A stretch of 9,624 nt of DNA from Candidatus Omnitrophota bacterium (GCA_023818895.1 JAMWCX010000005.1:1-9624), one strand, 5' to 3'; positions 1,605-9,624 are shown, counted from the first letter of the stretch. The notes: generated from the letters alone by a model not told the origin. Translations and numbers: made by a program.

Positions 1605-3710
1605 TTGCCGTTACTGATAGCCATCATATCCTTCCTTTCCCTACAGCTTTTGACCGCTTGCATTTGGGCACAGCCACCTGCTCCACCCGCGGGAGCGGTG
1701 CAGTCTGCCTTACGGGAGACCACTAGAGATGTTCGCGGCAAAGTTGAAGAAAAGCTCGAAGAACGGCCTACCAAGCCGCCGCAACTAAAGGAAGAAATAG
1801 CTGAAGAGGTTGTGGAAGGGCCTAAATTTCTGGCCAAAAAGATAGAGCTTGTGGGGGTCAAGAGCTTTCCCGTAGAGGAGTTTTCGAAACTTGTCCAGAA
1901 GTATGAGAATAGGGAAGTTTCGATAGCTGAACTTAAGATACTGGCTAAAGAAATAGAAAGAGATTATCTAAGGAAGGGTGTGATAGCCGCCTGTTTTATA
2001 CCGCCGCAGGATGTCAAAGAGGGAGTTGTTTCGATGCGGGTGGTGGAAGCCAAGATGGGAGAACTGCAGATAAAACAGGGTAAATACTTTTCAAAGAAAA
2101 GGACAGAATATTACTGGAGAATTCCTGAGAATGAGGTGTTAAGATACGATCGTATATCCCGAAGCCTGCAATTCATGAATAAAAATCCTGACAGGAATGT
2201 CAAGGCTGCTCTTCACGCCGGCAAGAAACCGGAGACTACCGATGTTCTGCTTGATGTAGCTACGAATTTCCCGTTGCATGTAACGGCTACACTTGACAAC
2301 GAAGGTGCCCCCTCCACGGGCAAGATAAGAAGTGGAGTCGGATTCGTCGAGAATAATTTTGTCGGCCTTGATGATACCCTTCTGGGTGGTTATACCGGCG
2401 GCAAGAATTTCGGCGGCATATATGTATACCACCGCGTTCCAATAACCAATTTCGGAACGACCATCCTATACGGCTACAGCCAAACCCGCTCATTCCCCAA
2501 GAAAGATTATGCCCCCTTTGAGATAAGCTCAAGACAGGAAAACTATAGCGTGTTCCTTTATCAAGACCTATTCTATAAGGACGAATACAAAGGCGAAGTC
2601 TCCGCTGGTGTGGATATGAGCAACAAACGGGTGGTATCTGGTGCTGGAGGCGACCTTAATGTCGATAGGCTCAGGGTGCTGAGCGGCTCATTTACCCTGA
2701 TAGGCAAAGGAATGGGGAATTCGACGAGCATAAAGCCCTCAATATATCAGGGCTTGAACTGGTTGGGCGCTCGAAGGCAGAGTCGATTTTCTTCTCGCCA
2801 GGCGCAGAATACCTTTACCAAGGCGACTTTAAATATGAACTTCAGACAAGCGTTGGTGAAGAACTTCCAGGCCAGCGTAAAATTCAACGGACAATGGGCC
2901 TCGGAAAAACTTATGCCGCAACAGGAGATGTATCTTGGAGGCATAGATTCGATCAGGGGTTATCCTTCCGGCGACTACCTTGCGGATAGCGGTTTTTATT
3001 CAAACTGGGAACTTTTAGTCCCGGCCTTCTTCCTACCAGAATGGGTAAGGATACCATACGGTGAGAGGCCGCTTAAGGATGAGATAACAGGCGTCGTATT
3101 CTTCGATTGGGGCTACGGAATGAAAAGAGGGAATATCCAAGGTGAGCAGACATCTCGCAGGATGGCATCGGTTGGCATTGGCGGCAGGGTCAGGCTTCTG
3201 AATCAGGCCATGCTGAGAGTTGAATGGGGTGCGCCGCTCGATCCTCTCGTGAATGGTCCCCTTACGGAATGGAGCCGTTCGCGCGTTCATGTCTCGCTTG
3301 ATTTTCAGGATGATCTGCCGGAGGAGGTTGAGCGTTTCCAAAAAGTCCAAAAGGAAGAGTACATGAAGGATGCCGCCTGGAAAATAGTGAATGATGAGAT
3401 GAAAAATCCTAATAGCCCTTTGCGCGCCGCTATATATAAGTATTTTGCGAAAGCAAAGCATGCCCAGGCCAAGGGGGATTTAGAGTCTGCGCGTGAAAAT
3501 TACGGTAAAGTTATTTCTATAGGGGAGAATGTTTATCGTCAGGCCGAGGCGTATGTTAGAGAAAGCTACAAACAGATAGATGCCCTGCATAAACTTGAAG
3601 AAGAAGCGCAAGAATATCTAAAGAAAGGTGATGTGGCGAAAGCCAAAGAAGCTTGGCATAAGATCATTGAAGAAGGGAAACCAAAGCCGCTCGTTCTGGA
3701 ATTTATATAA
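1605..3710 (+). CDS. ShlB/FhaC/HecB-family TpsB outer-membrane transporter (POTRA domains plus Omp85-type barrel) with a 134-aa C-terminal helical extension
   Basis: Signal peptide ...LLIAIISFLSLQLLTACIWAQ. POTRA-like region IELVGVKSFPVEEFSKLV...DYLRKGVIAACFIPPQDVKEGVVSMRVVEAKMG. Barrel region LDNEGAPSTGKIRSGVGFVENNFVGLDDTL.... Conserved Omp85 loop-6 motif GGIDSIRGYPSG. The barrel ends with an aromatic residue, RVHVSLDF, followed by an extra tail (nt 3306-3707). The true start may be the non-canonical CTG 1581 or ATT 1578 (see findings). Confidence 0.9.
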   Translation: MPLLIAIISFLSLQLLTACIWAQPPAPPAGAVQSALRETTRDVRGKVEEKLEERPTKPPQLKEEIAEEVVEGPKFLAKKIELVGVKSFPVEEFSKLVQKYENREVSIAELKILAKEIERDYLRKGVIAACFIPPQDVKEGVVSMRVVEAKMGELQIKQGKYFSKKRTEYYWRIPENEVLRYDRISRSLQFMNKNPDRNVKAALHAGKKPETTDVLLDVATNFPLHVTATLDNEGAPSTGKIRSGVGFVENNFVGLDDTLLGGYTGGKNFGGIYVYHRVPITNFGTTILYGYSQTRSFPKKDYAPFEISSRQENYSVFLYQDLFYKDEYKGEVSAGVDMSNKRVVSGAGGDLNVDRLRVLSGSFTLIGKGMGNSTSIKPSIYQGLNWLGARRQSRFSSRQAQNTFTKATLNMNFRQALVKNFQASVKFNGQWASEKLMPQQEMYLGGIDSIRGYPSGDYLADSGFYSNWELLVPAFFLPEWVRIPYGERPLKDEITGVVFFDWGYGMKRGNIQGEQTSRRMASVGIGGRVRLLNQAMLRVEWGAPLDPLVNGPLTEWSRSRVHVSLDFQDDLPEEVERFQKVQKEEYMKDAAWKIVNDEMKNPNSPLRAAIYKYFAKAKHAQAKGDLESARENYGKVISIGENVYRQAEAYVRESYKQIDALHKLEEEAQEYLKKGDVAKAKEAWHKIIEEGKPKPLVLEFI

Positions 3711-3743: not shown

Positions 3744-4952
3744 ATGACCAAAATAAAGATATTAGTCATAACCACGGTGATGTGCGCTTTTGCGCTTGGC
3801 AGTGTTTGGGCTCAAGGAACATCGGAGGGTTCGCGACAGGAATCTGCGAATCAGGTAAGACTGGAAGTGAGCGATAAGATTCTTGATAAAGATTTGCCGT
3901 CATATAAGACGAATCTCAAAGAGATAGTTCGCGAAGCCGAATATAATCTAAAACGGATAGACGGCACCCTTAGAGAGAGGGATAACGAAAAAATCGCTAA
4001 AGAAAAGTTTGAAAGGGCCAACGAACTTGTTAAAGAAGGTAAGTTTGAAGAAGCCAAAAATGAATATGAGGCAGCTAAAAAACTTACAACTAACATGGAC
4101 TTCAAGAGAACGATTAAAGAAAGCGAGCAAAAAATAGCCTCTAAAGCGAATGAACAGGAGCGCGACCGGCTGGCTAAAGAAAGGATGCAGGCAGGCGCCG
4201 GGGCCAAAGAAATAATTACAAAAAAAACCTCCGAAGAGGGGAAGGTTGTTGCGCAACCAATTGTAGAGAAAGAAGTTAGGACTAAGCCTGCTGCAAAGAA
4301 GCAACCCGCCGCGCCAGTAGTCACTGAAAAGCGGTACGGTACCGAGGTAGGTATGAAGAGTCGGGTTGACAAGGGCGTTATTAGTGCCACTCCGAGCGCG
4401 AAGAAGGCGACGTCTGTTAAACAGGTAACGTCGGTGAAGGTGGTCGATCAGGCTGAAGCTAAAGCGAAGGCGGAAGTAGAGGCTAAAGCGCGCGAAGAGG
4501 CCGCCGTTAAGGCCAGGTTGGAGGCCGAAGCAAAAGCCAGGGAAGAAGCTGCCGCAAAGGCGAGGATGGAGGCCGAAACAAGAGCGCGCGAAGAAGCCGC
4601 TGCAAGGGCGAAGGCCGAGGCTGAAGCGAAGGCAAGGGCAGAAGCAGAGGCTAAAGCTAAGGCTGAAGCGGAAGCGAAGGCAAGAGAGGCCGCCGCGGCC
4701 GCCAAGGCAGCGGCAGAAGCGCCGAAACCGGCGCCAGCCGTTGTCTCTACACCGGCACCCGCAGCGGCTCCGAGTAAGACTGTGGCGGAAACCGAAGATA
4801 TATCCGGCCTTTACAGGGAGGCGGTTTCCTTATACTGGGATAATAAATATGAAGAAGCGAAGGCCAAGTTTGAGCAGGTTCAGAAGATAGCTTCTGATTA
4901 CGCGCGAACTTCTTATTATCTCGGCCGGATTAAGGAGAAGTTGGGGAAGTAG
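3744..4952 (+). CDS. Secreted coiled-coil protein with an Ala/Glu/Lys-rich repeat core and TPR-like helical ends (hypothetical; TPS-locus accessory)
   Basis: SD AAGGA lies 8 nt upstream of ATG 3744, and the gap after tpsB is only 33 nt with no terminator. Signal peptide MTKIKILVITTVMCAFALGSVWA/QG. Long charged helical sequence with an EAKAREEAAxKAR repeat core. The C-terminal YREAVSLYWDNKYEEAKAKFEQVQKI...YYLGRI is TPR-like. Confidence 0.8.
   Translation: MTKIKILVITTVMCAFALGSVWAQGTSEGSRQESANQVRLEVSDKILDKDLPSYKTNLKEIVREAEYNLKRIDGTLRERDNEKIAKEKFERANELVKEGKFEEAKNEYEAAKKLTTNMDFKRTIKESEQKIASKANEQERDRLAKERMQAGAGAKEIITKKTSEEGKVVAQPIVEKEVRTKPAAKKQPAAPVVTEKRYGTEVGMKSRVDKGVISATPSAKKATSVKQVTSVKVVDQAEAKAKAEVEAKAREEAAVKARLEAEAKAREEAAAKARMEAETRAREEAAARAKAEAEAKARAEAEAKAKAEAEAKAREAAAAAKAAAEAPKPAPAVVSTPAPAAAPSKTVAETEDISGLYREAVSLYWDNKYEEAKAKFEQVQKIASDYARTSYYLGRIKEKLGK
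4452..4721 (+). repeat. Intragenic low-complexity tandem repeat encoding (E-A-K/R-A)n helices, with an imperfect period of about 48 nt
   Basis: Translation AEAKAKAEVEAKAREEAAVKARLEAEAKAREEAAAKARMEAETRAREEAAARAKAEAEAKARAEAEAKAKAEAEAKAREAAAAAKAAAEA. This region produces the antisense shadow ORF 4448..4705. Confidence 0.85.
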
Positions 4953-5397
4953 GTTTTTCTTCCTTTGGCAGGTTTTCCGATATTCTTTTTAAAATGTTGA
5001 TGTTCTCAGGATTTTCAGCGATGAGCCGTATATAACGGTCCATCGCTTTATTTTGTAAATAAAGACCCTTTTCCCACCTGAGATAACTCTTTTTACCAAC
5101 GCCCAAAAGGTCTGCCATCTCTTCTTGTGTGTAACCCAACTTTTGACGTATTTCCTTTAGTTGTTCCATAGTTAGAAGGCCGCGTTTTTTGTGTTTTTCA
5201 GCTTGAACGCGGTTTAAGGCTTCTTTTGGCAGGAACTCCTCTTTACATTTATTGCATCTTTTGATATTTAGATTTTTAACAACGAGTTTAATATTACGAG
5301 TTCCTTCCCGGAAATATGTCTCATGATCTGATATCTCGTCTTCCAGATATCCATCATTGCACAGCGGGCATTTTACTTTTTCTTTATTTTCAGGCAT
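4930..5397 (-). CDS. MqsA-family zinc-ribbon plus XRE-type HTH protein (antitoxin-like transcriptional regulator), with no adjacent toxin gene
   Basis: From ATG 5397: MPENKEKVKCPLCNDGYLEDEISDHETYFREGTRNIKLVVKNLNIKRCNKCKEEF, which has CxxC...CxxC. The HTH is LTMEQLKEIRQKLGYTQEEMADLLGVGKKSYLRWEKGLYLQNKAMDRYIRLIAENPENINIL. The layout is collinear with E. coli MqsA. The upstream TTG 5448 would add an implausible 17 aa. The 3' end overlaps the convergent gene by 23 nt. Confidence 0.85.
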   Translation of the reverse strand: MPENKEKVKCPLCNDGYLEDEISDHETYFREGTRNIKLVVKNLNIKRCNKCKEEFLPKEALNRVQAEKHKKRGLLTMEQLKEIRQKLGYTQEEMADLLGVGKKSYLRWEKGLYLQNKAMDRYIRLIAENPENINILKRISENLPKEEKPTSPTSP

Positions 5398-5409
5398 ATT
5401 ATCTTTTTT

Positions 5410-5425
5410 GGTATCAATTGATACC
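5410..5425. promoter_or_regulatory. Perfect 16-bp palindrome, a candidate operator in the MqsA-like gene's leader
   Basis: GGTATCAATTGATACC equals its own reverse complement. It lies between the predicted -10 (5435-5430) and ATG 5397 on the minus strand. Confidence 0.6.
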
Positions 5426-5429
5426 GACA

Positions 5430-5458
5430 AATATATCACTAAAATCAAGTTTTGGCAA
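5430..5458 (-). promoter_or_regulatory. sigma70-type promoter for the MqsA-like gene
   Basis: On the minus strand: TTGCCA (5458-5453), 17-nt spacer, TATATT (5435-5430). Confidence 0.55.
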
Positions 5459-5513: not shown

Positions 5514-5574
5514 TGGAGACGGCTTCCAATTTATGCTAGTAGCGACTTCTAGATAGAATTGGAAACCGTCTCTG
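5514..5574. repeat. Inverted-repeat pair of the GGAGRCGGTTTCCAA motif family (long hairpin or palindromic element)
   Basis: Arms tggagacggcttccaatt (5514-5531) and aattggaaaccgtctctg (5557-5574). Of 18 positions there is 1 mismatch and 2 G-U pairs. The spacer is 25 nt. A half-copy, agagacggg, lies at 5496-5504. Confidence 0.85.
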
Positions 5575-5678: not shown

Positions 5679-5706
5679 TTGACAATTAAAATAGTTAAGA
5701 TATACT
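5679..5706 (+). promoter_or_regulatory. Strong sigma70-type promoter driving the long tpsA1 leader
   Basis: -35 TTGACA (5679-5684), 16-nt spacer, -10 TATACT (5701-5706). An A/T-rich UP-like stretch lies upstream. The predicted TSS is near 5713, about 320 nt before the tpsA1 start. Confidence 0.7.
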
Positions 5707-5759
5707 TAAATTGTAAAAAGGAGTTCTTTACAATAAGGAGTTCGCTTATTCTCTTAAGC

Positions 5760-5910
5760 GATAATGGCAAACTTAGCGAAAGCTAAGGACGCCCTGCACC
5801 CATACGTGGTACAGGGCCGGGAATCAGACGAAATTCTGATTCACGGCAAAGCTCTAGAGCCTAACCTCCGATGAGAGTCGGAGCATGGCAGTCAGTTGCC
5901 GAAATAAGAG
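5760..5910 (+). promoter_or_regulatory. Candidate riboswitch aptamer, c-di-GMP-I (GEMM-I)-like with a two-hairpin insertion
   Basis: GGCAAAC (5766-5772), then hairpin cttagc-GAAA-gctaag (5772-5787), then GACGC (5788-5792). Two extra hairpins follow (5792-5816 and 5821-5842). Then ACG-GCAAAGC (5843-5852), receptor-like CCTAAC (5860-5865) and CATGG (5884-5888) flanking hairpin ctccga/tcggag (5866-5883), and finally CAG-TCAG-TTGCCGAAA (5889-5904). Compared from memory with the V. cholerae Vc2 aptamer (GGCAAACC-auuc-GAAA-gagu-GGGACGCAAAGCC...CCUAAACC...GGUAGGUAGCGGGGUUACCGA). Confidence 0.5.
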
Positions 5911-5925
5911 ATTTTTTGTTTCTGG

Positions 5926-5976
5926 CGGGACAGTTTCCTTCTTGATAAAAAATACAACTCATAGGAAACTATCCCG
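5926..5976 (+). repeat. Long leader hairpin whose arms are diverged copies of the GGAGRCGGTTTCCAA family
   Basis: cgggacagtttcct (5926-5939) pairs with aggaaactatcccg (5963-5976). 13 of 14 positions pair. The loop is 23 nt and A-rich. Confidence 0.7.
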
Positions 5977-5984
5977 GTCGCGAT

Positions 5985-6027
5985 ACCCGCGGTTTCGGCA
6001 ATTGTGTCGAGCTGCGGGTTTTTGTTT
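5985..6027 (+). terminator. Intrinsic terminator (attenuator) immediately upstream of the tpsA1 RBS
   Basis: Lower stem acccgcgg (5985-5992) / ctgcgggt (6012-6019). Upper stem ttcggc (5994-5999) / gtcgag (6006-6011). Loop aattgt. U-tract tttt-g-ttt (6020-6027). The SD aagg (6028-6031) and ATG 6035/6041 follow directly. Confidence 0.8.
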
Positions 6028-6034
6028 AAGGCGG

Positions 6035-7705
6035 ATGAAAATGAAAAAAAATAAACAATTTAAAAAATGGACGCAACGCGAGAAGAAAAATGCGACGGTG
6101 TTTTTCTGCCTGGTCGCTGTTTTCTTTATGAATCTTTTATACGCTAATAGCATCGCTGCGCTCCCTAAGGATTATGAAGTCGCCGCCGGCAGTGCCGAAT
6201 TTCATGTGCAGGAAAATACCCTTACCGTAACTGCCTCTGACAAAGCTATCATAAATTATAAGTCCTTCGATATTGCACAGAATGAGAAGGTTATATTCAA
6301 TCTGCCTACGACTACGAGCGCAGTACTTAACAGGGTTCATTCTCCGGATCCGACGAATATACAGGGCCTTCTGCAGTGTAACGGAATCTTTATACTAGTT
6401 AATCAGTCCGGCATATACGTGGCCCCTGGCGCCAACGTGAACGCGGCGAGCATGATCCTTTCAACAAGAGACATCAATAATTCAGACTTCCTGGCCGGTC
6501 GGTATTCCTTCCACAAGGTATCCCAGAATGGGTTCGACATGTTGCTCCTTAATGAGGGCAATCTCGCCGTTTCGAAAGGCGGTTTCCTTGCCCTGGTGGC
6601 GGGCGCGATAGAGAATAAGGGTGTCATAACCGCCAGATCGGGGACGATTGCTCTGGCAGCAGGAAATGCCGTTAAGTTCGAGATAGCCGGAAACAATATG
6701 ATCTCGGTGGCGGTCACGGAGCCTGTCGCCGAGCAGATCCTGGATTTTGAAGGCAAGCCTGTTAAGGATCAGATCAAGAACACCGGCTCTCTTAACGCGG
6801 AAGGCGGCACTATTATACTTAAAGCCGAAAGCGTTGCCGATATCTTCATAAACGCGGTCAATCTTGAGGGAGTGGTCAATGCTGAGAGGGTCGAATGCAA
6901 GGATGGAGGTGTAAGTATAATCGCAGGCGGCAAGGTTGAGATACCCGCTGAACAGATAATCACAACGCGCCTTGAGGTATTCGCTAAAGAACTCGTAATG
7001 CTGCCGCCACGGATACCTGAGAGAGTCATAGACGGCGACGTCGATGTGAATACGGCTGAGGCGCTTCATATCATGCCGTCAGAACCCGCGCAAGTCATTA
7101 AGGCCGAGGAATCGATAACGATATTTGCCGAGAAGGCGATTGAAGTCGCGTCAACGATAGAAACGCCGACAGTTACGCTGGTATCAGGCGATATGGTAGA
7201 TACGCGCGGCGCCGCCATCGTCCAGGGAACGAATTTTAATTTAAGGGCTAATAGATTCGGAAAGTATGAAACGCCTGTTAAGATACAGGCCGAGAATAGT
7301 TATGTTAATGGATTTAATAAAAATATAGATATTCGTGAGGCATTAGGAATCGGCACGTCCTTTTTGATACGCGGGCCTCCGGATGAGGGCTTTGGAGCCA
7401 TTGAATACAACCGAAACCTTTCGCGTCTTACGCTGGAGGCGGAAGATGTAATTCTTTCCGTAACAAATCCTGTTTATGTAGATGGTCATTTGATACTTTC
7501 CAATTTCCTGGGCTTGATTCCTTTTATATATCTTTTATCCAAAGGTAATAATATCGTTTTCCCTATTGTGAATGGAGTAAGTCTCCTGCCATTTTTCGTG
7601 GCGCACTTAATCGTGATTAAAACTATGAGTAGGGCTGGTAGGATATGCGCCGGATTATGCGCGGTTGGGATACGACAGGAGCTTAAATTAGTAGAAAGGG
7701 GGTGA
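6035..7705 (+). CDS. TpsA-family exoprotein, short paralog (filamentous-haemagglutinin N-terminal / haemagglutination-activity TPS domain); 556 aa
   Basis: Signal peptide MKMKKNKQFKKWTQREKKNATVFFCLVAVFFMNLLYANSIAA. TPS domain NYKSFDIAQNEKVIFNLPTTTSAVLNRVHSPDPTNIQGLLQCNGIFILVNQSGIYVAPGANVNAASMILSTRDI. The ORF-track start at 5885 would translate through the structured leader and terminator and has no SD. ATG 6035 or 6041 follows aaggcgg. The last 70 aa or so are atypical (see findings). Confidence 0.85.
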   Translation: MKMKKNKQFKKWTQREKKNATVFFCLVAVFFMNLLYANSIAALPKDYEVAAGSAEFHVQENTLTVTASDKAIINYKSFDIAQNEKVIFNLPTTTSAVLNRVHSPDPTNIQGLLQCNGIFILVNQSGIYVAPGANVNAASMILSTRDINNSDFLAGRYSFHKVSQNGFDMLLLNEGNLAVSKGGFLALVAGAIENKGVITARSGTIALAAGNAVKFEIAGNNMISVAVTEPVAEQILDFEGKPVKDQIKNTGSLNAEGGTIILKAESVADIFINAVNLEGVVNAERVECKDGGVSIIAGGKVEIPAEQIITTRLEVFAKELVMLPPRIPERVIDGDVDVNTAEALHIMPSEPAQVIKAEESITIFAEKAIEVASTIETPTVTLVSGDMVDTRGAAIVQGTNFNLRANRFGKYETPVKIQAENSYVNGFNKNIDIREALGIGTSFLIRGPPDEGFGAIEYNRNLSRLTLEAEDVILSVTNPVYVDGHLILSNFLGLIPFIYLLSKGNNIVFPIVNGVSLLPFFVAHLIVIKTMSRAGRICAGLCAVGIRQELKLVERG

Positions 7706-7760
7706 TGAAAATGTTGCGTAGCAAATGGCAAAAAATAGGTTCCAGGCATGATGATGACGG

Positions 7761-7829
7761 GAGGCGGTTTCCAAGGTGTAGTGGAGGCGGTTTCCAAGTT
7801 GTGGTGGAGACGGTTTCCAATAGGAGTAG
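7761..7829 (+). repeat. Three tandem 23-bp direct repeats of the GGAGRCGGTTTCCAA family upstream of tpsA2
   Basis: gaggcggtttccaaggtgtagtg (7761-7783), gaggcggtttccaagttgtggtg (7784-7806), gagacggtttccaataggagtag (7807-7829). Units 1 and 2 differ at 2 of 23 positions. The 14-15 nt core is conserved in unit 3. Confidence 0.9.
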
Positions 7830-7866
7830 GAGATTTGAAGATATGCTTCGAAAGGAGGCGATCGCC

Positions 7867-9624
7867 ATGAAAACTAATAATCTTTTGATGGTAAATGGTA
7901 TAAATAGGAAATTGATAAGCTATCTTAACAGGATAGTGGCGATTCTCCTTGTGATAACATTTGCCTCATCCCAGGTGGTATATCCGCTTCCTCAGGACCC
8001 GCAGATAGAGGAAGGAACGGCTACCATACATGTCGATGGAAGCACCATGACTATAAACGCTCAGGACAAGACCGTCATAAATTATTCTTCCTTCAATATA
8101 GGAGCAAACGAAGCGGTCATAGTGACGCTGCCTAACGTAAATAGCTCTATATTGAACAGGGATATCGGAGGGAGTGTCTCCAATCTTGCAGGTCTTTTAC
8201 AGTCGAATGGTCTATTTATCTTGATTAATCCGGCAGGTATCTATGTGGCACCTACAGCGAATATAAACGTGGGAAGCATTGTCCTTTCCACAAGAGATAT
8301 AAACTCTAAAGACTTCATCAACTCAAACTACGTATTCCAGAAGATATCGAGAGAGCAGCTCGACGCTTTGCTACTGAACGCCGGGACCATAAATATAACT
8401 CGGGGTGGTTTCGGCGTTCTGATAGCGGGTGCCGTCGAAAACAAGGGCATAATCACTGCCCCTGTGGGGAAAATTACTCTTGCATCAGGAGACGCGGTTA
8501 AGCTCGACATAGGGGGAGACGGACTTATATCTGTCGCCATAGAGGAGAAGGCGGCCTCAAAAGTCTATGACTTCCAGGGCAGGCCCATCACCGACGCCAT
8601 CAAGAACTCAGGCACCCTGAAAGCTGACGGCGGAGTGGTGACCCTGAAGGCGGAGGCGCTTACCGACGTATTCACGAAGGCCATCAACCTTGAAGGGCTG
8701 ACACAGGCAACGACACTTGACAGCACAAAAGGTGAGGTGAGACTCGTCTCGGACGGGGCGATACAGAATACAGGCACTATCAACACCAACACCCTGACAG
8801 AGAAAGGAGCCTCGTTCAAGGCGAGCGGGACTATAACGGGAGGGGATGCCTATTATGACAATGAGGACGGGGCGATGGTTATAAACGGCCCCATAAATAT
8901 CGGTTCCAACCAGTATGACAACGGAAACATCATAATAAATGGTGCCGTTACTCTTATCGCTAATAACCTGACCTTTGCCGCTGATAATGACAATGACCGA
9001 TCCGGCGTCTTCTACATGAATACGGGCGCTAGAATCGACGGAGGTTCTTCCACTAAATATAACCTTACGATAAAGAGTGGCAATACCGCGGCAGCCGGAG
9101 AGGGCATAGATGGTCAGGCGCCCAAGCTTGAGAATATCTCCAATATCGGAACCATTACATTTGACAAGTCCACAGGCTCAACTCCTACCTACACCTCAAA
9201 TAGCTCCGCAGAATTCAGCGTAAATACGGTCAAGACCGTTTACGGGACCAAACTCTCCCGCGATGTTACAGACGGCGGCTATCATATGATCTACTCGGTC
9301 TCCGATGCGCCGGGCGGACTGCAATTGATGCAGAATAACCTCGGCTGGAATTACAAGCTCGCCAATGACATAGACGCGAGCGAGACTGAGCTTTGGAATG
9401 GCGGAGCGGGGTTTGTGCCAGTGGGAACATTCACTGGAACTTTTGACGGAAGCGGATGTGAGATTACGGGGCTTTATATTAACCGGTATGGCACAATGGA
9501 GCCGAAGAACGGCCTATTTGGAGAAACATCGGGCGCGACAGTGCGCAATGTCGGGCTTAAGTCAGCATTTGTCAAAGGTGGTAGCCAGACGGGAGGGCTA
9601 ATAGGATGGATGTGGGGTGGTGGT
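7867..9624 (+). CDS. TpsA-family large exoprotein/adhesin, 5' partial relative to window end (TPS domain, then beta-helix-like repeats, then GLUG-motif region). The reading frame stays open to the window end
   Basis: Not in the supplied ORF track because it has no stop in the window. My translation gives 586 codons with no stop. AAAGGAGG lies 8 nt upstream of ATG 7867. Sequence: MKTNNLLMVNGINRKLISYLNRIVAILLVITFASSQVVYPLPQDPQIEEGTATIHVDGSTMTINAQDKTVINYSSFNIGANEAVIVTLPNVNSSILNRDIGGSVSNLAGLLQSNGLFILINPAGIYVAPTANINVGSIVLSTRDIN.... Later comes NYKLANDIDASETELWNGGAGFVPVGTFTGTFDGSGCEITGLYINR...GLFGETSGATVRNVGLKSAFVKGGSQTGGLIGW, which is GLUG-type. About half the residues are identical to tpsA1 across the TPS domain, judged by eye. 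Confidence 0.9.
   Translation, partial: MKTNNLLMVNGINRKLISYLNRIVAILLVITFASSQVVYPLPQDPQIEEGTATIHVDGSTMTINAQDKTVINYSSFNIGANEAVIVTLPNVNSSILNRDIGGSVSNLAGLLQSNGLFILINPAGIYVAPTANINVGSIVLSTRDINSKDFINSNYVFQKISREQLDALLLNAGTINITRGGFGVLIAGAVENKGIITAPVGKITLASGDAVKLDIGGDGLISVAIEEKAASKVYDFQGRPITDAIKNSGTLKADGGVVTLKAEALTDVFTKAINLEGLTQATTLDSTKGEVRLVSDGAIQNTGTINTNTLTEKGASFKASGTITGGDAYYDNEDGAMVINGPINIGSNQYDNGNIIINGAVTLIANNLTFAADNDNDRSGVFYMNTGARIDGGSSTKYNLTIKSGNTAAAGEGIDGQAPKLENISNIGTITFDKSTGSTPTYTSNSSAEFSVNTVKTVYGTKLSRDVTDGGYHMIYSVSDAPGGLQLMQNNLGWNYKLANDIDASETELWNGGAGFVPVGTFTGTFDGSGCEITGLYINRYGTMEPKNGLFGETSGATVRNVGLKSAFVKGGSQTGGLIGWMWGGG

Follow-up and report, generated by a model that had tools for sequence, protein, structure and literature searches.

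Class-I cyclic di-GMP (c-di-GMP) riboswitches of Clostridioides difficile are reportedly OFF switches that act by premature transcription termination, in work attributed to Sudarsan (2008), Soutourina (2013) and McKee (2018). One of the targets of the C. difficile class-I switches is an adhesin-type protein (table in PMC11477304). The first description of the GEMM motif (Weinberg et al. 2007, PMC1950547) listed fhaC (TpsB) among the associated genes and included GEMM in Planctomycetes; it drew the GNRA hairpin as a 2-bp plus a 6-bp stem with no insertion, and emphasised terminators that overlap the 3' hairpin, implying ON regulation. We analysed a 9,624-nt stretch of DNA from Candidatus Omnitrophota bacterium (GCA_023818895.1 JAMWCX010000005.1:1-9624; hereafter the window), in which a structured leader with an aptamer of this type (GEMM-I) precedes tpsA1, a gene for a two-partner-secretion (TPS) exoprotein. 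The phylum Omnitrophota is uncultured, and its cells are very small and may be attached to hosts. To our knowledge, almost nothing has been established about their gene regulation, and literature searches found no paper on riboswitches of Omnitrophota. From sequence and predicted folding, we consider it probable that tpsA1 and a downstream tpsA paralogue are controlled by a c-di-GMP-I riboswitch of the transcriptional, ligand-OFF type, with region 5893-6034 as its expression platform.

Compared with the C. difficile Cd1/class-I switches (flgB operon, CD2797 adhesin), the locus has in common a GEMM-I aptamer, a separate distal terminator and termination promoted by the ligand, the last being predicted here. 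It differs in its host (Omnitrophota, not Firmicutes), in its two-partner-secretion TpsA targets, and in having a two-hairpin insertion, an antiterminator made from the aptamer's tail and a closing helix, P1, that abuts a U-tract. The two-hairpin core, the AAA linker and the GNRA loop with its receptor are those of the GEMM of 2007, whereas the separate terminator, the OFF logic and the insertion in the GNRA hairpin are not. The three-state logic, by which the 3' strand of the aptamer is used either to close it or to pair with the terminator 5' arm, is that of the SAM-I, guanine xpt and FMN ribD OFF riboswitches. In those the switching segment is mainly P1; in the window it would be the base of P3 together with the ligand-contacting tail, and the antiterminator loop contains an inserted hairpin of 50 nt. 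One related leader (L149) uses exactly the P1 3' strand, as the SAM-I/xpt/ribD type does. The mechanism itself is standard for riboswitch specialists, the lineage and the gene context are new, and two features of the architecture are unusual: the two-hairpin insertion and the U-tract abutting P1. The reading gives a concrete regulatory input for Omnitrophota surface exoprotein (TpsA) genes, in which high c-di-GMP would cause premature termination.

The GEMM-I aptamer and its insertion

We aligned the window with 35 diverse leaders of the aptamer family in MAFFT (36 sequences; alignment A3). The parts of the predicted aptamer are as follows.

5750-5756, + strand: P1 5' strand UCUCUUA, pairing with 5905-5911
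5766-5790, + strand: GNRA-tetraloop hairpin, GGC AAA CUUAGC GAAA GCUAAG GAC (partial Rfam match, A3)
5791-5845, + strand: two-hairpin insertion, made of 5791-5817 and, directly next to it, 5818-5845, whose loop is GAAA (MAFFT block, folding)
5846-5850, + strand: closing G-C of the GNRA hairpin and AAA junction (columns invariant in A3)
5850-5897, + strand: P3 hairpin with tetraloop-receptor-like CCUAA (5860-5864) and CAUGG (5884-5888) (Rfam alignment, pair counts)
5898-5904, + strand: conserved 3' tail GCCGAAA (Rfam consensus UgCCgaa; near-invariant in A3)
5905-5911, + strand: P1 3' strand UAAGAGA, identical in the three closest tpsA leaders (L148, L002, L149)

Judged by family membership, this upstream element is a genuine c-di-GMP-I (GEMM-I) aptamer, with a predicted extent of 5750-5911 that takes in P1, the GNRA hairpin with its two-hairpin insertion, P3 with its receptor, and the tail. 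In sensitive mode, Rfam matched RF01051 (c-di-GMP-I, GEMM-I) at 5805-5903 with 40.8 bits (E=1.6e-6; gathering threshold 35); in this match the covariance model took the second insertion hairpin as a stand-in for the true GNRA hairpin. A second, partial RF01051 match (33 bits, 5756-5803) covers only the perfect GNRA hairpin, and insertion-free homologous tpsA leaders with the same core reach 70-80 bits. The default gathering mode of Rfam with its fast filters returned no match in the window; these filters miss such aptamers because of the two-hairpin insertion.

In A3, the window matches the 35 family members column for column on both flanks of the insertion. The canonical helices are paired in 85% of structure cells, compared with 71% in shuffles (0/500 as high), and show strong covariation. 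The GNRA hairpin has the 2-bp base, AAA/GAC internal loop and 6-bp stem of the family (5767-5790) and is paired, with covariation, in 96% of cells across the 36 sequences, while its closing pairs (alignment columns 22-23/101-102) are paired in 100%. As in the family, an AAA linker (5848-5850) leads into the second hairpin with its tetraloop receptor. G5767, A5849 and C5899 sit in invariant columns corresponding to G20, A47 and C92, respectively, which we take to be these positions of the Vc2 numbering, C92 being the ligand-pairing base. The Rfam alignment and A3 agree in placing 5896-5904 in the conserved 3' segment of the aptamer, as an earlier note on this DNA had proposed. We infer c-di-GMP as the ligand.

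The predicted closing helix is P1 (5750-5756/5905-5911) instead of a helix between GGCAA (5766-5770) and TTGCC (5896-5900). The P1 register is paired in 51.6% of cases against 41.9% in shuffles (0/500 as high) and is the best of the slid registers; cognate P1 flanks pair more stably than non-cognate ones (p=1.2e-4), and relatives vary on both sides of the helix (UCUCUA/UAGAGA, AAGUUUAA/UUAAACUU, UUUUCCUG/CGGGAAAA). The earlier note had taken GGCAA as a third exclusive partner of the tail region. Its complementarity to TTGCC is there; the helix does not hold up, being without covariation (493/500 shuffles as high) and breaking wherever either side varies.

The insertion (55 nt, an atypical feature) separates the GAC bulge of the GNRA hairpin from that hairpin's closing G-C, beside the ligand pocket, and its boundary is ambiguous by 2 nt, a GC dinucleotide standing on both sides. 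The same two-hairpin architecture recurs at the same site with unrelated sequences in 13 distinct leaders including the window, among the matches listed. Besides the window, the leaders recorded with the insertion are L002, L006, L030, L047, L057, L061, L071, L083, L092, L119, L125, L127, L145 and L148. We found no description of a two-hairpin GEMM-I insertion.

A small hairpin at 5742-5761 presents the P1 5' strand in its loop and has the conserved CGA(U) of CGAUAA in its 3' strand. Counterparts occur in L148, L002, L149, L031 and L130 with differing stems (UCGCUUA/UAAGCGA versus UCGGU/ACCGA). We rejected it as a conserved anti-P1 element: several close relatives have one, and it is not family-wide. 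It could be an apo-state alternative to P1.

The predicted terminator T2, its antiterminator and related leaders

The following features lie around and between the aptamer's 3' edge and tpsA1.

5679-5706, + strand: sigma-70-like promoter, TTGACA-16 nt-TATACT (11/12 matches; predicted start ~5713)
5893-5905, + strand: antiterminator 5' strand CAGUUGCCGAAAU, overlapping the P3 base, the tail and the first P1 3'-strand nucleotide
5926-5976, + strand: linker hairpin joining the antiterminator strands (inverted repeat I1; in all stepwise folds)
5979-5991, + strand: CGCG/CGCG mini-helix, sequestering the base of the T2 5' arm (minimum-free-energy (MFE) structure at transcript ends 6002-6014)
5985-6027, + strand: intrinsic terminator T2, 15-bp bulged stem (5985-6019) followed by U5GU3 (RNAfold)
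5992-6004, + strand: anti-tail GUUUCGGCAAUUG, the upper T2 5' arm and loop
6028-6043, + strand: Shine-Dalgarno-like AAGGCGG (6028-6034) and tpsA1 start (ATG 6041)
6041-7705: tpsA1, TPS domain (PF05860)

RNAfold builds the T2 stem from 10 bp (A5985-U6019 to U5994-A6010), a bulged U5995 and 5 bp (C5996-G6009 to A6000-U6005) around an AUUG loop (6001-6004), with 3 G.U pairs among the 15. A 50-nt segment that ends at the stem has an energy of -21.9 kcal/mol; when flanks are included, the value is -24.8. The predicted element is therefore of the intrinsic-terminator kind: a stable hairpin, on the coding strand and 5' of a gene, with a U-tract directly after it (U6019-6023, G, UUU6025-6027). A simple terminator scan of the window missed T2, probably because the bulged stem falls outside a simple stem-loop template. 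Since the promoter-like site at 5679-5706 lies upstream and the tpsA1 start (6041) downstream, T2 is placed inside the 5' untranslated region of a transcription unit and not at a gene end. Both this position and the strength of the terminator had been read correctly in the earlier note. The leader from 5713 to 6034 folds far better than shuffles (z = -6.1), and a GATATACTT-type -10 box recurs 5' of homologous leaders.

The upper part of T2 is complementary to the aptamer's 3' segment. TTGCCGAAA (5896-5904) and TTTCGGCAA (5993-6001) are exact complements, and TTTCGGCAA is found only twice in the window (on the + strand at 5993-6001 and as the complement at 5896-5904; chance expectation 0.14), a count reached in 2/200 shuffles. 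A repeat search returned 5893-5904/5993-6004 as an inverted repeat (12 nt, 92%); with G.U counted, the pairing runs to 13 contiguous pairs (5893-5905/5992-6004). The duplex between the T2 5' arm and the upstream leader scored -24.8; with the arm shuffled by dinucleotides, the score was -16.9 +/- 2.1 (0/200 as good). The 9-nt perfect complement and its 13-bp extension with wobbles thus proved accurate, every string lying where it had been placed and the duplex beating 200/200 shuffles.

Length-stepped MFE folding from the predicted start at 5713 showed how these segments would compete. For transcript ends up to 5996, the tail pairs locally with the U-run that follows it, in an A/U-rich hairpin (5896-5909/5914-5928), which was overlooked in an earlier reading. 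At ends 6002-6014 the MFE structure contains all 13 antiterminator pairs, together with the CGCG mini-helix at the base of the T2 arm, and from 6020 onwards the complete T2 supplants the antiterminator. At full length the T2 state reaches -121.8 and the antiterminator-enforced state -119.0; this small gap (2.8 kcal/mol) is consistent with kinetic control. The antiterminator is mutually exclusive both with the aptamer (P3 base, tail, P1) and with T2 (arm, loop). With the ligand-competent aptamer enforced, T2 forms, and the logic is therefore OFF. In these models, the stepwise and constrained folds are the signature of an OFF switch under what would be kinetic control. The proposal that a ligand-locked 5896-5904 lets the terminator form is thereby sustained by the length-stepped and enforced folds, the identity of the aptamer and the conserved pairing described below.

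We propose the following course of events. Without ligand, 5893-5905 (P3 base, tail and first P1 nucleotide) would be free, and 5992-6004, once transcribed, would pair with it in a 13-bp antiterminator, aided by the CGCG mini-helix and the linker hairpin. By occupying the upper T2 5' arm and loop, the antiterminator would let RNA polymerase continue into tpsA1. Binding of c-di-GMP would lock P1, P3 and the tail, C5899 contacting the ligand; the anti-tail would be left free, the 15-bp T2 would form, and transcription would stop at ~6020-6027 to give a leader of ~310 nt. In vivo, tpsA1 would accordingly be expected to be off at high c-di-GMP.

The pairing could be followed into the three closest tpsA leaders (L148, L002, L149), which are identical to the window in the string CCGAAAUAAGAGAUUUUUU; linkers and terminator stems differ among the four. 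Terminators lie at orthologous positions in all three, with different stem sequences, and the linker hairpin 5926-5976 is absent from them and is lineage-specific. In the MFE fold of the transcript cut just before the terminator 3' arm, the 5' arm paired with the tail/P1-3' region in each. The pairing of the window, L148 and L002 was tabulated in a manual register (MAFFT misaligned the concatenated tail and terminator), in which a 10-bp core (AGUUGCCGAA with UUCGGCAAUU) is kept. G5898:C5999 becomes A:U in L002, a compensatory change, and three other anti-tail positions show one-sided changes that keep the pairing (U-A to U.G, G.U to G-C). In L149, the terminator arm AUCUCUU is complementary to the P1 3' strand AAGAGAU instead of the tail, and both L148 and L002 have linker-to-arm-base pairs analogous to the CGCG mini-helix. 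The alternative pairing is thus conserved and covarying in relatives, in a sample of 3-4 sequences.

To place the window in a wider family, we used an alignment-based scan of a genome collection for TpsA homologues, which returned 26 Omnitrophota or 'Planctomycetia' loci in metagenome-assembled genomes (MAGs); no relatives came up when a genome collection was scanned with the TpsA1 protein alone. A GEMM-I aptamer and a terminator stand directly upstream of tpsA in 12/26 loci, including the window. Three further TpsA homologues (L151, L152, L153) have leaders without a riboswitch, so the association between riboswitch and tpsA is not universal.

A DNA-pattern scan of metagenomes gave at least 120 stretches; the counts that follow are among the matches listed. 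A stand-alone terminator follows the aptamer in 98/115 related leaders, and in the 94 leaders for which the best partner was mapped, the terminator 5' arm usually pairs with an aptamer strand: the loop and 3' strand of the GNRA hairpin in 61/94, and the P3 receptor strand (CUAUGG) in 18/94. This mapping rests on duplex analysis and individual examples, the MFE-based classification being noisy (landmark heuristics). By inspection, the arm appears to track the sequence of its partner strand in top-scoring examples (e.g. L033, L146, L089). Four ON-type relatives, L032, L067 (human gut metagenome), L087 and L114, use the tail itself as the terminator 5' arm, so the window, with the opposite geometry, is of the OFF type. 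By its predicted pairing, the window belongs to the majority OFF design with a lineage-specific switching strand. The set provides ~110 unique natural leaders of one GEMM-I subfamily, useful for studying the evolution of expression platforms around a fixed aptamer; its value lies in terminator arms complementary to different aptamer strands and in the few ON-type counter-examples.

Two further features of the set were seen. In the ON-type relatives, the tail GCCAAAG pairs with UUUUGGC and a U-run follows, the classical ON geometry. In most members, the terminator resembles a copy of an aptamer hairpin (e.g. L033, L146, L089, L004, L013, L021).

Alternative readings

Several points weigh against a c-di-GMP-responsive OFF switch built on the tail. 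Equilibrium favours T2 even without ligand, and readthrough therefore depends on kinetic trapping; the local hairpin 5896-5909/5914-5928 forms first in the stepwise folds, so that the anti-tail must displace it. The tail is invariant for aptamer reasons, which makes the comparative support mostly one-sided, with only one truly compensatory pair among three sequences. The insertion beside the binding pocket could alter affinity or specificity. Finally, repression of an adhesin-type gene by c-di-GMP is contrary to the commonest expectation.

A refinement that does not exclude the tail-based OFF switch concerns the U-tract next to P1, which the earlier note had passed over.

5912-5921, + strand: U-tract UUUUUUGUUU (U6GU3) abutting P1 without a spacer, a candidate terminator (T1) or pause site

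In this refinement, two terminators would act in series, P1 plus U6GU3 (T1) making the primary decision and T2 with the tail antiterminator serving as a second checkpoint, still with OFF logic; we regard it as possible, in the tentative sense of the word. The gap between P1 and the U-tract is 0-1 nt, and CCGAAAUAAGAGAUUUUUU has stayed identical in the window, L148, L002 and L149 though the rest of the leader has diverged. Runs of at least 5 U starting within 16 nt of the tail occur in 27/110 unique leaders, typically directly after the P1 3' strand, and the U-run positions are bimodal, with peaks at +5 to +9 and at +35 to +50 (distal terminators). In L058, L064, L071, L120 and L130 no other terminator was detected before the gene, and in L058 a TpsA open reading frame (ORF) of >3,000 aa begins 29 nt after the tail. 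The U-tract also has the form (U6 A/G U) of bona fide terminator tails in these leaders. Together these data suggest that the ligand-closed aptamer may serve as a terminator hairpin of its own (T1), or else that the U-run marks a pause site. The second possibility counts against T1, for the U-run would serve equally well as a transcriptional pause that gives time for ligand binding. P1, moreover, has only 7 bp, two of them G-C, to close a multibranch domain of 150 nt, and RNAfold places P1 in the MFE structure of transcripts ending at 5911-5921 even without ligand, so that T1 would be constitutive if it worked at all.

Literature searches found no precedent for a GEMM-I P1 as a terminator stem, and only the HMP-PP (thiS) case is related. 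That ON switch (Atilho et al. 2019, PMC6478431) has a tiny aptamer within a terminator stem of the classic, strong kind, and termination is suppressed by its ligand. It sets a precedent for nesting an aptamer in a terminator stem, as T1 would do; here, by contrast, the aptamer is 160 nt long, P1 is a weak 7-bp helix, and the ligand would promote termination. A more elaborate form of the idea is more speculative still: an undescribed c-di-GMP-I subclass in which the insertion makes the three-way junction higher-order, P1 plus U6GU3 is the first ligand-triggered terminator and T2 the second checkpoint, giving a double-locked OFF switch on Omnitrophota TpsA genes.

We think it unlikely that the inserted domain has changed the ligand, for example to 3'3'-cGAMP or another dinucleotide, which would leave the logic of the platform unchanged. 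The insertion is indeed bounded by the GAC bulge and by the G-C pair next to G20 and A47, and some known GEMM-I variants differ in specificity (GEMM-Ib; Rfam models RF03167 'GGC' and 'UAU'). Against this, the three specificity positions (G5767, A5849, C5899) are canonical, and insertion-free orthologous tpsA leaders share the same core.

Quite improbable, in our judgement, is that T2 is a constitutive or leaky attenuator whose complementarity to the tail is incidental, with regulation residing elsewhere, e.g. at the promoter through a helix-turn-helix (HTH) protein resembling MqsA. Such a view would fit the terminator's winning at equilibrium without ligand, the divergent MqsA-like gene upstream in both the window and L149, and the inverted repeat with 27-nt arms between that gene and the promoter. 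It would leave to coincidence a unique 9-nt perfect complement (13 bp with wobbles) lying exactly in the T2 arm and loop, a pairing conserved with a compensatory change in L148 and L002, and terminator arms that pair best with an aptamer strand across related leaders.

An ON switch, in which ligand binding prevents termination, is the least likely of all and was rejected on geometry in the stepwise and aptamer-enforced folds: c-di-GMP commonly induces adhesins, ON control was proposed for GEMM with a terminator overlapping the 3' hairpin (Weinberg 2007, PMC1950547), and L032, L067, L087 and L114 show the type within the same aptamer subfamily, but T2 lies clear of the aptamer, beginning 74 nt beyond P1, its 5' arm is the partner of the aptamer segment so that aptamer folding frees T2 and does not destroy it, and the short linkers of L148, L002 and L149 show no conserved anti-antiterminator.

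Gene context

Contig JAMWDH010000023.1 of a Candidatus Omnitrophica MAG (GCA_023818765.1) contains the window. Gene order in the window begins with MscL and a FecR-like gene, followed by the genes below and then by tpsA1.

1605-3710: TpsB/ShlB-type transporter gene
3744-4952: TPR / alanine-rich protein gene
4930-5448, - strand: MqsA-like HTH gene (zinc-finger/HTH)

The region between the MqsA-like gene and tpsA1 spans 590 nt, with the switch in its 3' third. In-frame ATGs stand at 6035 and 6041, and the public gene call begins at 6041. A second tpsA gene lies downstream of tpsA1 and runs off the window.

With 554 aa, the tpsA1 product is short for TpsA (window 6041-9624; L001 5722-10304). An ORF with a weak Glug-domain match accompanies the second TPS-domain gene downstream. 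The gene for the TpsB transporter belongs to a separate upstream unit and is not on the transcript that the riboswitch would control.

The MqsA-like gene is divergent and upstream of the riboswitch-tpsA unit in two distant MAGs (the window; L149, 900-1388), and no obvious MqsR toxin partner was seen near it. The MqsA-like protein may be a regulator of the tpsA promoter. Between the mqsA-like gene and this promoter lies a long inverted repeat (5516-5572; 27-nt arms, 78% complementary, 3-nt spacer), which could be an operator or an RNA hairpin. At the 5' end of the leader, a direct repeat of AAnAAGGAGTTC (5715-5726 and 5732-5743) makes a 5'-terminal hairpin, and a GYUCUUU motif (5722-5728 in the window) recurs 15-60 nt 5' of the aptamer in many leaders.

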